Positions 52,746-57,456 of a stretch of 64,000 bases of DNA are shown here, in pieces (the stretch's first letter is position 1; each line of letters begins with the position of its first letter). The stretch lies in NCBI GenBank assembly GCA_947629765.1, contig CANREW010000002.1:2737-66736 (forward strand), in the 5' to 3' direction. The position numbers and the translations under genes were made by a program. The notes under the pieces are model-generated. The model worked only from the letters and a program-made list of their open reading frames with translations, had not been told where the DNA came from and made no database searches. The stretch comes from an uncultured Clostridia bacterium. Its GTDB lineage: Bacteria > Bacillota > Clostridia > TANB77 > CAG-508.

Positions 52746-53108
52746 ATGCTTAAAAAAATAATTATTGGAATATTTGCTGGAATTATTACTGGTCTTTTTG
52801 GTTCAGGAGGCCGGGATGATACTCGTTCCAGCTTTTACTTTTTTACTTAGTTTAGATGAGAAAAAAGCGAGAGCAACTTCAATAGTATGCATACTTCCAA
52901 TGGTTTGTGCAAGTTCGATTTTTTATTTTAATTCATCATATATAGAACTAGAAACTAGCATAATGTGTGCTATTCGGTGGAATTATCCGGAGGATTTATA
53001 GGTGCAAAACTTTTAAATAAACTTTCAGATAAATATTTAAAAATTTTTTTCACAGCTTTTTTGATTTATGTAGCAATTAGGCTTATTATTCAAGGAGCTA
53101 GCAGTTAA
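52746..53108 (+). CDS. Half-size TSUP (TauE/SafE) permease, interrupted by three apparent +1 frameshifts
   Basis: Skipping C52812, C52975 and C52988 gives MLKKIIIGIFAGIITGLFGSGG|GMILVPAFTF..IMCAI|GGII|GGFIGAKLLNKL.. (about 119 aa, 4 TM helices). Confidence 0.75.
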
Positions 53109-53127
53109 GTTTTTTTAGGAGGTAGAT

Positions 53128-53497
53128 ATGCTAAATATAATTATTGGAATAATCTCTGGAATAGTATCAGGAATGGGAATGCGGTGGAGGAACAATATTA
53201 ATACTTTGTTTAGCACTATTTCTTGGAAAAGATCAACACATAGCACAAGGCGCAAATCTTGTATTTTTTGTACCAACTTCTATAGTTTCTACAATTATAA
53301 ATATAAAGCAAAAATTAGTAGATTGGAAAACAGGAATAACGGTTTCAATTTTTGGAGTAATAGGTGCAATTATTGGCGCAAATGTTTCAGTAAATTTAGA
53401 TACAAATCGATTAAAGCTATATTTTGGTATATTTTTGTTATGCATTGCTGCATTTGAAATTTATTCTATTTTTTTGAAAAAAGAAAAAGCAAAATAA
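53128..53497 (+). CDS. Half-size TSUP (TauE/SafE) permease, interrupted by one apparent +1 frameshift
   Basis: Skipping C53182 gives ..GIVSGMGM|GGGTILILCLALFLGKDQHIAQGANLVFFVPTS.. through the stop at 53495..53497. It has its own RBS, AGGAGG. Confidence 0.75.
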
Positions 53498-53756: not shown

Positions 53757-54111
53757 ATGATAGACTTTATACTTAATACATTAGTCTATATACTTGCAAT
53801 TTACGGACTATTAGAGATTATAAAAACTATTATGTACATAATGAATTATACAAATTTAAGTGAAGACCGGAATATATATAATAGTTGCAGTTAAAAACCA
53901 AGGAAAGAAAATAGAAGGTGTACTTCGTTCAATTTTGTTTAAGATTATGTATGGAAAAGAAGAGATTATAAAAAAGGTAATATTGACTGATTTAGATTCC
54001 AAAGATGACACATTAAAGCATCTAAAAAATTTTAAGAAAGAGAATGACTATGTAGAGGTATCAAAATGGAGAGATTGCAAAGAAATAATAGATATGATAG
54101 ATGATACATAA
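53757..54111 (+). CDS. Hypothetical membrane-anchored protein, interrupted by one apparent +1 frameshift
   Basis: The ATG at 53757 (RBS GAGGTGA) gives MIDFILNTLVYILAIYGLLEIIKTIMYIMNYTNLSED|GIYIIVAVKNQGKK.. when C53868 is skipped, joining track ORF 53860..54111. Confidence 0.5.
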
Positions 54112-54180
54112 TTTATTTAAGGAATTAAGCTAGATAGTTTACAATAAATTAACAATTTTACATTATGTTTACAGAATAAA

Positions 54181-54209
54181 TTGACAAAATTTAGAAATGG
54201 TGCTATAAT
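54181..54209 (+). promoter_or_regulatory. Near-consensus sigmaA promoter driving the GC-rich RNA element
   Basis: TTGACA (54181..54186), a 17-nt spacer and TGcTATAAT (-10 at 54204..54209). Confidence 0.7.
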
Positions 54210-54215
54210 AAAATT

Positions 54216-54627
54216 ACATTACCGATAGGTAAGAGTAATAAAGAAAGGACGAAGGTAGATATGAGACGATGTAGACGCTTATATCATCATATCATGTTTT
54301 GATCTGAAATGCGCCGGCGGCAACGCCGCCAATGCCCCCGCAATCTGCGGAGGCCAGGGCAAGGGCTGCCATAGCCCATCTATCTCTTTCTGAGCAATTG
54401 CCATTAGGGCAAAATAAGATGTAGGAGGAAATACTGATGCTCAGGCGGTATAATGCTAGAGACCAGACCTAAGTAGACGGATCTCCCAAAAAACTGAGAG
54501 GAGAAAGATCATATGAGACCTGTAAAAAGCGGTTATCGGATTAGAGACCAGACTCCAACAAGGAAATAAAAAGTTGTTTCCTTGGATTCAAGAGAGCCGA
54601 CGTACTACGCCAGGCTCTCTTTTTTTG
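54216..54627 (+). ncRNA. Unclassified GC-rich structured RNA: either a 5' leader of the P-type ATPase or an independent ~410-nt RNA
   Basis: Bounded by a consensus promoter and an intrinsic terminator, with no ORF of 60 aa or more. It is strikingly G+C/CpG-rich against AT-rich flanks and has several hairpins (CGGCG-GCAA-CGCCG, CCCCCGCA..TGCGGAGG, GGGCT..AGCCC, TTGCC..GGCAA, CAAGGAAA..TTTCCTTG) and internal direct repeats. Confidence 0.5.
54591..54627 (+). terminator. Intrinsic terminator ending the GC-rich RNA, 130 nt upstream of the ATPase start
   Basis: AGAGAGCC-(14-nt loop)-GGCTCTCT followed by T7. Confidence 0.8.
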
Positions 54628-54756
54628 TGCCTTTTTATCCATTAAAACTGCATAATTAAAAATATAATGAACATATTAAAAATATTATTGATATAAATAT
54701 TTACTTGTGCTAAAATAATAGTTGTTAATTAGTCAAAGAAAAGGAGAAAATGCCTT

Positions 54757-57456
54757 ATGAATTATTTTAGCAAAAGCATAGAAGATGTAGAAAAAGAATT
54801 TGAGACAGATATAAAAAATGGTTTAAATAATGAAAGTGTTAAAGAAAAGATACAAAAATATGGATTTAATGAATTAGAAAGTAAGAAAAAAGAAAGTATT
54901 TTTGTTAAGTTTTTAAAACAGTTCAAAGATTTTATGATAATAATTTTGATAATAGCAGCAATTGTTTCTGCATTTATTGGTGTACAAGAAGGAGAAGGCT
55001 TTACAGACTCAATTATAATAATGGTTGTTGTAATAGTAAATGCAGTAATAGGTGTAATACAAGAAAATAAGGCGGAAAAATCACTAGAGGCACTCCAAAA
55101 ATTAAGTGCTTATGCTACAAAAGTTGTAAGAAATGGACAAGTCGAAGTGATTCCATCGAAAGATGTAGTACCAGGAGATATAGTTATTTTAGAAACAGGA
55201 GACTATGTTCCAGCAGATATTAGATTAGTAGAGGCTGTAAATTTAAAAATACAAGAATCAGCTCTTACTGGTGAATCAGTTCCAATAGAAAAAAATACAG
55301 AAAAAATAGATGACGAAACAATAGGAATTGGAGATAGGACAAACATTGCCTTTTCTTCAAGTATGGTAACTTATGGAAGAGGAAAAGGAATAGTAATAGG
55401 AACAGGAATGAATACAGAAGTTGGAAAAATTGCAGGCATGCTAAATGAAGTAGAAGAAGAGGAAACACCACTTCAAAAAAGATTAAATGGTTTAGGAAAA
55501 ACCTTAGGAATTGCTTGTCTCGTAATTTGTGCAGTTATATTTTTAATAGGACTTGTAGAAGGAAAAGAGCCAGTAGATATGTTCATAACTGCTGTTAGTC
55601 TTGCAGTTGCTGCAATTCCAGAAGGACTTGCTGCTGTATCTACAATAATTCTTGCAATAGGAATGCAAAGAATGGTAAAGTGCAATGCTATTGTAAAAAC
55701 ATTGCCAGCAGTAGAAACTTTAGGAAGCAGTACAGTTATTTGTTCAGATAAAACTGGAACACTTACACAAAATAAAATGGCAGTTAAAAAGATATTCTAT
55801 AACTCAAATTTGTATGATTTAGATAATGCACCTAAAAATAATGTCTTAGACAAAATAGTATATGCAAATATGCTTTGCAATGACACAAAAATAAATAATG
55901 AAAATGAACTAAGTGGAGATCCAACAGAAACAGCTTTAATAGATATGGGACTTAAATTACAATACGGAAAAGGGTTAATAAAAGAAAATATTAGAGTAAA
56001 AGAGTTGCCATTTGATTCAGAAAGAAAATTAATGACAACTGTAAATAAAGTTGGTGACAAATATATAGCATATACAAAAGGTGGAGTTGACGAACTTTTA
56101 GAAAGATGTACATCTTATGAAATGGAAGATGGTATTCATAATAATTTAGATGAATATAAAGTAGAAATATATAAGAAAAATCAAGAGATGGCAGAGAGTG
56201 CTCTTAGAGTTTTAGCGTGCGGATATAAAGTTTTGGATAAAGAACCAACAGACGAAGAAATGAAAGAGATAGAGAACAATCTAATCTATCTTGGAATGTG
56301 TGGTATGATTGATCCACCAAGAGAAGAAGTAAAAGCAGCTGTTCAAAAATGTAAGACCGCCGGAATAAAAACAGTAATGATTACTGGTGACCATAAAATA
56401 ACAGCGATAGCAATAGCAAAAGAACTTGGAATATTAGAAAATGAAGATGAAGCATTGACAGGAAAAGAATTAGACAATATTTCAGATGAAGAACTTACAA
56501 AAAATATAAGGAAATATAGTGTTTATGCTAGGGTTTCACCAGAGCATAAAGTAAGGATAGTAAAAGCTTGGAAAGCAAATGGCGAGATAGTATCAATGAC
56601 AGGTGATGGAGTAAATGATGCACCTGCATTAAAGACAGCAGATATAGGCTGTGCAATGGGAAAGGTAGGCACAGATGTTGCAAAAGAGGCAGCAGATGTA
56701 ATTTTGACAGACGATAACTTTGCAAGCATAGTAACAGCAGTAGAAGAAGGAAGAAGAATTTATGATAACATTTTAAAAGTTATCCAATTTTTGTTAGCAA
56801 GCAATATTGGAGAAATTATTGTATTATTCTTTGCAATACTACTTGCACCAGTTTTTGCAAATTGGTTTAATATAGTTAATGTAGGAAGTTTAACGCCACT
56901 TCTTGCAATTCACATACTTTGGGTAAACTTAGTTACAGACTCACTTCCAGCTTTGGCATTAGCAGTAGACCCAGCAGAAAAAAATATAATGAATAGAAAA
57001 CCAAGAGATAATTCAAAAGGAATTTTCACATCAGGAATGGTATATAGAGTAGTTTATCAAGGATTACTAATTGGAGTTATTACATTAATAGCATTTGGAA
57101 TTGGACTTAGCTCAACACAAGGATTACCAGAAGAACATAGAATAGAAATTGCACAAACAATGGCATTTACAGTGCTATCATTATCAGAACTTATACACAT
57201 ATTTAATATCAGGAATAATAAAGAATCAATATTTAAAACAGGAATATTTAATAATTCAAAATTAATTATGGCAGATATAATATGTGTAGCTTTAGTTCTT
57301 ATAATATTATTCGTGCCAGGATTAAGACAAGTATTTAGCCTAACAGAATTACCACAAGAAAATATTTTGGAAATAATTGCTTTGGTAATTTCTCCTATAA
57401 TAGTAGTTGAGGTATTAAAATTATTAAAATTAAATACACTAAAAAACGAGGAGTAA
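54757..57456 (+). CDS. Calcium-type cation-translocating P-type ATPase (P2, YloB/PMCA/SERCA-like)
   Basis: 899-aa ORF with 'ICSDKTGTLTQN' (phosphorylation site), 'MITGDH' and 'TGDGVNDAPALK'. Confidence 0.9.
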   Translation: MNYFSKSIEDVEKEFETDIKNGLNNESVKEKIQKYGFNELESKKKESIFVKFLKQFKDFMIIILIIAAIVSAFIGVQEGEGFTDSIIIMVVVIVNAVIGVIQENKAEKSLEALQKLSAYATKVVRNGQVEVIPSKDVVPGDIVILETGDYVPADIRLVEAVNLKIQESALTGESVPIEKNTEKIDDETIGIGDRTNIAFSSSMVTYGRGKGIVIGTGMNTEVGKIAGMLNEVEEEETPLQKRLNGLGKTLGIACLVICAVIFLIGLVEGKEPVDMFITAVSLAVAAIPEGLAAVSTIILAIGMQRMVKCNAIVKTLPAVETLGSSTVICSDKTGTLTQNKMAVKKIFYNSNLYDLDNAPKNNVLDKIVYANMLCNDTKINNENELSGDPTETALIDMGLKLQYGKGLIKENIRVKELPFDSERKLMTTVNKVGDKYIAYTKGGVDELLERCTSYEMEDGIHNNLDEYKVEIYKKNQEMAESALRVLACGYKVLDKEPTDEEMKEIENNLIYLGMCGMIDPPREEVKAAVQKCKTAGIKTVMITGDHKITAIAIAKELGILENEDEALTGKELDNISDEELTKNIRKYSVYARVSPEHKVRIVKAWKANGEIVSMTGDGVNDAPALKTADIGCAMGKVGTDVAKEAADVILTDDNFASIVTAVEEGRRIYDNILKVIQFLLASNIGEIIVLFFAILLAPVFANWFNIVNVGSLTPLLAIHILWVNLVTDSLPALALAVDPAEKNIMNRKPRDNSKGIFTSGMVYRVVYQGLLIGVITLIAFGIGLSSTQGLPEEHRIEIAQTMAFTVLSLSELIHIFNIRNNKESIFKTGIFNNSKLIMADIICVALVLIILFVPGLRQVFSLTELPQENILEIIALVISPIIVVEVLKLLKLNTLKNEE

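Follow-up and report, generated by a model that had tools for sequence, protein, structure and literature searches.

A strain-variable, promoter-to-terminator cassette with candidate micro-peptide genes upstream of a Ca-type P-type ATPase gene in uncultured Clostridia

We analyzed a 64-kb stretch of DNA (64,000 nucleotides (nt); henceforth termed the window) from contig CANREW010000002.1 of an uncultured Clostridia bacterium, in which a 551-nt cassette is flanked on one side by a gene for a small membrane protein and on the other by the promoter of a Ca-type P-type ATPase gene. We give about an even chance to the reading that this cassette is an optional, fast-evolving, self-contained transcription unit that codes for an array of micro-peptides set between hairpins rich in guanine and cytosine (GC). 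At the level of sequence, the cassette has a promoter, a terminator, initiation signals, an excess of mini open reading frames (mini-ORFs), conservation of a coding type, and polymorphism confined to one genomic site; from these we infer transcription, translation, and the peptides, or their translation, as the functional output. With its own promoter and terminator and with ORFs that are led by Shine-Dalgarno (SD) sites and appear to be under purifying selection, the unit has, in its sequence, the hallmarks of a small-peptide operon or a dual-function small RNA (sRNA). An earlier annotation of the same DNA (henceforth the original prediction) had described the element as an unclassified structured RNA, either a riboswitch or attenuator leader of the ATPase gene or a stand-alone sRNA.

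In the reading that we favor, transcription would start from a consensus sigma-A promoter and run for ca. 410 nt to a strong intrinsic terminator. The resulting polycistronic transcript would carry an array of three mini-genes, with 13, 11, and 18 codons, that each have a canonical SD site and are set apart by GC-rich hairpins. Selection would act on the encoded peptides (shared core Y-x-x-R-D-Q-T) and on the initiation sites, since substitutions are synonymous and starts, stops, and frames are preserved. The tiny basic peptides themselves, or else their translation, would be the functional output; the GC hairpins would mainly stabilize and partition the RNA. Strains would differ at a single site that is empty, short, long, or equipped with another peptide motif, a pattern typical of accessory peptide-signal or competition loci.

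Results

Orthologous ATPase loci, amounting to ca. 1.1 Mb of related sequence, were gathered and their upstream regions compared; all alleles compared (loci labeled L) are metagenome-assembled genomes (MAGs) or metagenome contigs and comprise few independent alleles. On the sense strand of the window allele, three SD-led ORFs of 5–25 codons were observed against 0.31 expected from dinucleotide shuffles (P=0.005), and the antisense strand contains none. Clusters of at least three such ORFs are almost confined to these elements in the related loci scanned. Two direct repeats listed in the original prediction are both exact, but their nature had been missed: ATATGAGAC, at 54259 and 54511, corresponds to the start codons of mini-ORFs 1 and 3, and TAGAGACCAGAC, at 54457 and 54542, codes for the R-D-Q-T shared by mini-ORFs 2 and 3. 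The predicted peptides are Arg/Lys-rich and polar, with lengths of 11–18 aa in the window and 8–14 aa in the L004/L091 alleles described below, and have SD sites. Macrolide-type ‘+x+’ arrest motifs (RCR, RIR, RLR) were considered and set aside, as was macrolide resistance mediated by peptides, because Arg-rich peptides give ‘+x+’ by chance and the ORFs exceed the 4–6 residues needed.

Locus L008, with an ATPase 92% identical to that of the window, carries a shorter allele at the equivalent site. This allele is devoid of a 176-nt module (54264–54439 in the window) that holds mini-ORF 1 and the GC core, and consists of the shared promoter, the 5′ hairpin, MLSYRIRDQTM, MRPVKSGHRIRDQTPAWK, a hairpin, and a terminator, in this order. 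In MLSYRIRDQTM, the ortholog of mini-ORF 2, R-D-Q-T is kept with three of the four codons synonymously changed (AGA/CGG, GAC/GAT, ACC/ACT). The ortholog of mini-ORF 3, MRPVKSGHRIRDQTPAWK, differs at 8 nt, of which none falls on codon position 2 (0/8) and half are synonymous (4/8). The 5′ hairpin (UCACC-AAUA-GGUGA in L008) shows one compensatory pair change relative to the window, and in the pre-terminator hairpin, pairing is maintained by two double compensatory changes, AA/UU becoming UU/AA, and by the replacement of one U.G by U-A. The L008 terminator is restructured and equally strong (−18.9 kcal/mol). A different 3′ variant is present in L112, which has only the last ca. 40 nt in common with the window allele.

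A second allele family was found in L004, L003, L114, and L091, whose ATPases are 78% identical to the window ATPase and 96% identical between themselves. The unit in these loci extends over 680–740 nt from promoter to terminator, has a GC content of ca. 50%, and occupies the matching place and orientation. A first ORF of 13–14 aa (ORF1; M(V/TF)RLRRMFS(A/V)FMK) is followed by GC hairpins and then by four more SD-led ORFs (Table 1) that end in a common [FYW][TP][STA]G[FY]x-stop. Mini-ORFs are again enriched, with 6 observed versus 0.31 expected in L004 and 5 versus 0.23 in L091 (P<0.001). Between L004 and L091, start, stop, and frame are retained in 5/5 ORFs while stop codons vary from TAA to TGA or TAG, the sole indel within an ORF measures 3 nt, and the T, P, and F codons of the motif differ synonymously. 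Identity amounts to 84% in ORFs and 87% in initiation regions (4/5 identical), versus 70% in spacers, which contain 9 indels. ORF1 of L004/L091/L114 (MVRLRRMFSAFMK) and mini-ORF 1 of the window are of equal length and have an RxRR[LM][YF]xx[IF]M-like pattern in common, a resemblance that is suggestive and not statistically shown. Inside the L004-type element of L114, a scaffold gap (a run of N; L114:990–1087) has an identical 55-nt sequence on either side, which suggests a module duplication that the assembler did not resolve.

A metagenome scan with the shared promoter and 5′-end pattern returned 16 matches, among which L091 and the already known L004 contig were the only relatives; the remaining matches were ordinary strong promoters of protein genes. 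Perfect-promoter sites in L051, L052, and L082 belonged to unrelated genes or to another short hairpin RNA. At L082:847–960, a perfect extended −10 promoter located right after gatB precedes ca. 60 nt ending in a hairpin and a T-run, a separate small-RNA candidate unrelated to the cassette.

At the level of whole loci, the cassette is a presence/absence polymorphism. L001 and L113 show no difference over 645 nt in this region, which is precisely missing from L012/L109 (ATPase 99% identical, flanks 96%) and L007/L002 (93% for both), and also missing from L108, L110, L111, and every relative with a 77–80% identical ATPase; further empty loci are L009–L011, L045, L054, L081, L082, L105, and L107. 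At empty sites, the stop codon of an 83-aa ORF abuts TATAATGAAC, which is followed by the ATPase promoter. Correspondingly, the left flank in the window stops at the TAA of this ORF (54111) and the right flank restarts at TATAATGAAC (54663), edges that were set by blastn and alignment against L012, L007/L002, L108–L111, and others. The cassette has neither terminal inverted repeats nor a target duplication, and it occurs as a single copy at a constant site in the window and the related loci. A 20-nt imperfect tandem repeat (ATTAAAAATATAATGAACAT / ATTAAAAATATTATTGATAT, window 54655–54694) covers both the right junction and the −35 region of the promoter of the ATPase gene, and microhomology of this kind might provide a route for cassette gain or loss. 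Contigs L104, which starts at the equivalent of window position 54661, and L115, which starts inside an L004-type terminator region, begin at the cassette edge, suggesting that alleles co-exist in those samples.

These comparisons bear directly on the riboswitch proposal. Judged from sequence, the ATPase gene has its own promoter (TTGATA-17-TGCTAAAAT), which lies outside the cassette, between the terminator and the gene, and is conserved in every genome, whether or not the cassette is present. Absence from the nearest relatives, together with the terminator and this independent promoter, argues that the cassette is neither the riboswitch of the pump nor an obligatory leader, and no riboswitch model matches it. 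A comparison of the regions upstream of orthologous ATPase genes had been suggested as a check on the original prediction; the element turned out not to be conserved there and is precisely absent from most loci. Judged from its arrangement, the cassette is probably not required for ATPase expression and would at most add terminator read-through to the output of the pump's own promoter. The alternative of a stand-alone small transcript fits a unit with its own promoter and terminator. Inspection of minimum free energy and partition-function folds revealed no convincing antiterminator pairing with the 5′ arm of the terminator, with few sequences available for covariation. Comparing presence and absence among near relatives settled the riboswitch question quickly, and the case cautions against taking every GC-rich promoter-to-terminator island 5′ of a transporter gene for a riboswitch when the genome is AT-rich.

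All descriptive elements of the original prediction held up. The promoter, termed near-perfect there, matches the consensus at 12/12 positions and is the sole such site in the window; transcription would start near 54216. Promoter and first transcribed bases (TGCTATAATAnAAnTACAT) are common to L008 and the L004/L091 allele family. The ca. 410 nt that follow are indeed free of long ORFs, as none of at least 60 aa occurs in 54112–54756 and the longest measure 41 aa (minus strand) and 30 aa. The terminator stem (54590–54598 and 54613–54621) is 100% complementary and is followed by T7 at 54620–54626; with a free energy of −16 kcal/mol (z-score −3.6), the structure ends 130 nt before the ATPase ATG (54757), as had been claimed. 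It was missed by a simple terminator scan because the loop comprises 14 nt. The reported central GC richness was likewise borne out: GC content peaks at 0.60 (100-nt segments, step 50) or 0.64 (step 10), compared with a window average of 0.29, making the cassette the top GC island of the window, above a tRNA at 0.58.

Folding predictions gave a more mixed picture. The hairpin described just 5′ of the terminator was recovered, and GC hairpins including the GCAA tetraloop are predicted as proposed, but the stability of the GC-rich core alone does not exceed that of composition-matched shuffles (z-score −1.4). The whole element folds about equally well on both strands (z-scores −4.6 sense, −4.3 antisense). 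As both strands fold alike and the core is no better than shuffles, predicted stability by itself is not evidence of a functional fold. A pyrimidine tract that may act as anti-SD (Table 1) and the region around the mini-ORF 3 ribosome-binding site (54496–54509) have an unpaired probability of ca. 0 in the partition-function prediction, and this tract is missing from L008. The hairpin preceding the mini-ORF 2 ribosome-binding site is placed analogously to UGCC-AAAG-GGCA before GAAGGAGGG-ATG in L004, L091, and L106. The idea that hairpins keep initiation sites open found no support in partition-function folding.

In agreement with the original prediction, no known RNA family was recognized. Covariance-model searches of Rfam returned no family at the gathering threshold for the window or for the L004 and L008 alleles; families without a match include yybP-ykoY, M-box, transfer-messenger RNA (tmRNA), RNase P, 6S, OLE, ROOL, GOLLD, and raiA. 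At E≤10, only weak terminator-shaped sRNA models appeared, the top one being McaS with 24 bits versus a cut-off of 42. ARAGORN, run because relatives carry a tmRNA at this position, detected no tmRNA in the element. GGA motifs are not enriched (9 in 415 nt versus 8.1 expected), which argues against a Csr/Rsm-type sponge.

Table 1. Features of the window allele, its downstream neighbor, and the second allele family; coordinates refer to the window.
Feature	Position	Strand	Description
Strain-variable cassette	54112..54662	+	551 nt; block present here, missing at empty-site genomes
Sigma-A type promoter	54181..54209	+	TTGACA (54181–54186), 17-nt spacer, TATAAT (54204–54209), extended −10 TG (54201–54202)
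5′ hairpin	54219..54232	+	UUACC-GAUA-GGUAA; predicted
Mini-ORF 1 (putative)	54261..54302	+	MRRCRRLYHHIMF, 13 aa; upstream AAAGGA..GAAGG ribosome-binding site
GC-rich core	54310..54377	+	Three short GC hairpins including GGCG-GCAA-CGCC; predicted; missing from L008
Pyrimidine tract	54377..54395	+	Possible anti-SD; predicted pairing with mini-ORF 3 ribosome-binding site (partition-function fold)
Hairpin directly 5′ of mini-ORF 2 ribosome-binding site	54398..54412	+	UUGCC-AUUAG-GGCAA; predicted
Mini-ORF 2 (putative) with ribosome-binding site	54424..54472	+	GGAGG (54424–54428), 8-nt spacer, MLRRYNARDQT (54437–54472, 11 codons)
Mini-ORF 3 (putative) with ribosome-binding site	54499..54569	+	AGGAG (54499–54503), 9-nt spacer, MRPVKSGYRIRDQTPTRK (54513–54569, 18 codons)
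Hairpin around mini-ORF 3 stop codon	54559..54584	+	11 bp; −12.2 kcal/mol
Intrinsic terminator	54590..54627	+	9-bp stem around a 14-nt loop that contains a further 3-bp stem; T7
ATPase promoter	54688..54716	+	TTGATA, 17 nt, TAAAAT with TG; outside the cassette
Type II (Ca-type) P-type ATPase gene	54757..57456	+	Downstream neighbor; NCBIfam
Later ORFs of second allele family (putative)			MN(RQ/HL)RFTSGFL; MRYTSG(FI/YT); M(RR/KL)FT(S/A)GF(Q/T); M(Q/K)RWPTGF(S/T)

Discussion

Several observations weigh against an array of micro-peptide genes. In local alignments of the window allele with L004/L091, only the promoter and the 5′ end score better than shuffles, so that the case for homology between the two allele families is one of position and architecture. 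L106 represents a short, degraded version of the second family in which promoter, some hairpins, and terminator are retained while most mini-ORFs are lost or degraded; this pattern suggests that an RNA scaffold, or mere neutrality, could outweigh the peptides. Initiation regions are not notably open in the predicted fold (unpaired probability 0.34–0.51 versus a mean of 0.39), in which the mini-ORF 3 ribosome-binding site is paired. Among the neighbors of the locus, no receptor, exporter, or modifying enzyme was seen. Finally, each allele family is represented by only 2–3 independent sequences, all from metagenome assemblies.

The main rival, which we consider unlikely, is an add-on cis-regulatory leader of the ATPase gene in which ribosomes translating or stalling on the mini-ORFs would choose between termination and read-through from the strong distal promoter, i.e., leader-peptide attenuation as with mgtL, which precedes the Mg2+ P-type ATPase gene mgtA, or with antibiotic-responsive leaders. 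Short leader ORFs that control mgtA provide a precedent (PMC6460261). All alleles lie in the same orientation directly upstream of the ATPase gene, a linkage that outlasts rearrangement of the upstream gene in L004 and L114, and the peptide motifs are located near stop codons. In the window, L008, and L004, the final mini-ORF stops within a hairpin, 21–23 nt ahead of the terminator, whereas the corresponding distance in L091 is 46 nt. Such a leader is also difficult to reconcile with the conserved promoter between terminator and ATPase gene in every genome, with the absence of the element from most orthologous loci, and with the lack of a convincing antiterminator pairing on inspection. Moreover, ribosome-coupled transcription attenuation is uncommon in Firmicutes. 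Quite unlikely, in our assessment, is a non-coding structured sRNA in which the scaffold would be the product, acting as a sponge for a protein or 30S subunits or as a base-pairing regulator, with SD/AUG pairs as binding motifs or incidental occurrences. The strong promoter and terminator, the high GC island in an AT-rich genome, and the stability of the whole element agree with this explanation, as do the hairpins retained via compensatory changes, the scaffold parts without mini-ORFs in L106, and the genes for stable RNAs, namely RNase P, tmRNA, and tRNA, that occupy the equivalent position in related genomes. Yet the equal folding of the antisense strand, the unexceptional GC core, the absence of an Rfam family, and the GGA count speak against it, the spacers, several hairpins included, are the least conserved parts, and synonymous-type substitution, frame preservation, and conserved SD-AUG spacing would be hard to explain without translation.

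Two further explanations dispense with a function of the insert. Evolutionary debris, that is, a decaying or neutral insert left by foreign GC-rich DNA or a former stable-RNA gene and polymorphic through loss, would account for the absence from the closest relatives, the many length variants, the degraded L106 allele, a GC content foreign to the genome, and the fragmented appearance of neighboring window genes. We nevertheless judge it improbable: in several diverged alleles the promoter is perfect and both the terminator and the initiation sites are intact, conservation is higher in mini-ORFs and initiation regions than in spacers, and there is no similarity to tmRNA, RNase P, any Rfam family, or phage or plasmid DNA. 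For a purely non-coding sRNA as for neutral debris, L106 is an argument in favor and the conservation pattern an argument against. A miniature mobile element, such as a miniature inverted-repeat transposable element (MITE), an insertion sequence (IS) remnant, or a phage- or plasmid-derived insert with a chance promoter, appears highly improbable. Its appeal lies in the clean presence/absence polymorphism with identical boundaries in several genomes and in the contigs L104 and L115 that break at the element edge. The features by which a MITE or IS is recognized, namely terminal inverted repeats, target-site duplication, and multiple dispersed copies, are absent within the ca. 1.1 Mb of related sequence, where the cassette is single-copy at a constant site; no transposase or integrase is located nearby, and blastn against 50,697 phage and 72,556 plasmid records came back empty. 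Exact scans of viral contigs with two conserved 17-mers gave 0 matches for one and, for the other, 2 chance matches inside unrelated coding sequence.

Comparison with known systems places the putative peptide array close to, though not within, several described classes. Leaderless communication peptides (LCPs), such as SIP of Streptococcus pyogenes, are encoded by ultrasmall ORFs, comprise ca. 8–11 residues, and are highly hydrophobic (PMC10518010). If its tiny ORFs are translated, the cassette would be similar in yielding peptides devoid of a signal or leader sequence and in the strain-specific alleles of these candidate peptides. LCPs differ in being hydrophobic, single-copy, and encoded beside a RopB/Rgg receptor gene, whereas the predicted cassette peptides are basic and polar, and arrays of 3–6 ORFs per transcript are set between GC hairpins; no RopB/Rgg-type receptor gene is adjacent among the locus neighbors. 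With mgtL/mgtA and mgtM-mgtP/mgtCBR of Salmonella, the cassette shares short SD-led ORFs that are located, within a structured RNA, 5′ of a co-oriented P-type ATPase gene (PMC6460261). It differs in being dispensable, in showing no recognizable alternative pairing, and in that a terminator and then a conserved, independent promoter intervene before the ATPase gene. A structured RNA with a terminator also precedes a Ca-type P-type ATPase gene in Streptococcus, where the yybP-ykoY riboswitch controls a Mn2+/Ca2+ pump (mgtA; PMC6649816), which renders outdated the earlier statement that no metal-sensing RNA for calcium pumps is known. In this case, the cassette differs in showing no covariance-model match even at E≤10 and in not being conserved across orthologs.

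Several tiny motif-sharing ORFs on one short transcript are also a property of the staphylococcal PSM-alpha operon, whose products are 20–26-aa amphipathic helices with a dedicated exporter, and of the eukaryotic tarsal-less/polished-rice (tal/pri) gene of insects, with four 11–12-aa ORFs sharing one motif. Dual-function sRNAs such as RNAIII/hld, SR1/SR1P, and SgrS/SgrT combine one ORF of 26–43 aa with a defined base-pairing region. Like them, the cassette would yield a structured promoter-to-terminator transcript of a few hundred nt with small ORFs inside, but it contains three putative mini-ORFs instead of one longer ORF and has no identified target-pairing region. Csr/Rsm-type sponge sRNAs are recognized by a many-fold enrichment of GGA, mostly in hairpin loops, which the cassette does not show.

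In the literature, we found no described bacterial array of 8–18-codon ORFs with GC hairpin spacers. Tentatively, and with considerable doubt, the cassettes may represent a type of bacterial locus that has not been described before, in which leaderless micro-peptide genes of 8–18 aa form a hypervariable array between promoter and terminator at a single site, with pherotype-like motif differences between strains (Y-x-x-R-D-Q-T versus [FYW][TP][STA]G[FY]x). The products might serve as inter- or intracellular signals or, as nascent chains, act as sensors that adjust how much read-through reaches the calcium-pump gene. Provided that the mini-ORFs are translated, the cassette would constitute a compact natural bacterial transcript with several motif-sharing peptides of only 8–18 residues. 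Such a locus is invisible to standard gene callers, which apply a minimum of ca. 30 aa, and to RNA-family searches. Its one-site allelic diversity in uncultured gut Clostridia resembles that of pherotype or competition loci and could mark social or ecological differences at the strain level.

Locus neighborhood and further observations

The ATPase orthologs originate from uncultured gut Clostridia, many of them rabbit MAGs. In NCBIfam, the window ATPase matches the PMR1-type Ca ATPase best (754.6 bits), under the cut-off of 798 for this family, and clears the cut-off of the PMCA-type family (527.9 versus 507). Further neighbors comprise gatCAB, a 74-aa HTH_26 protein, small membrane ORFs, and a polysaccharide deacetylase gene. 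The HTH_26 protein is the closest regulator, is encoded 1.7 kb away, and also occurs in genomes without the cassette.

Upstream of the cassette, a 45-aa ORF and the 83-aa ORF (window 53757–54111) overlap out of frame. L091, L105, and L107 have a single ORF of 119–123 aa in their place, pointing to an apparent frameshift in the window lineage; the corresponding protein has no Pfam or NCBIfam match. A TauE/sulfite-exporter-like gene (window 52746–53457) is split into short overlapping ORFs of 34, 78, 47, and 109 aa, and in the relative L105, TauE domains are found in two ORFs, one of 120 and one of 122 aa. The broken gene could be a pseudogene or reflect low-coverage assembly errors (coverage of contig L001 ca. 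4x).

In distant relatives (ATPase 65–70% identical), stable RNA genes are located directly upstream of the ATPase gene (L014:2396–2740; L035:2438–2793; L053:2610–2965), and tRNAs occur there in L019, L023, L031, L034, L047, L052, and L077; overall, these upstream stable RNAs are of three types, RNase P, tmRNA, and tRNA. Strongly expressed RNA genes seem to reside habitually at this site in the clade, and the cassette matches none of the three RNA types found at the equivalent position. In L014 (Candidatus Merdicola sp.), an array of clustered regularly interspaced short palindromic repeats (CRISPR) with seven repeats matching Rfam CRISPR-DR3 lies directly downstream of the ATPase gene (L014:5935–6360).

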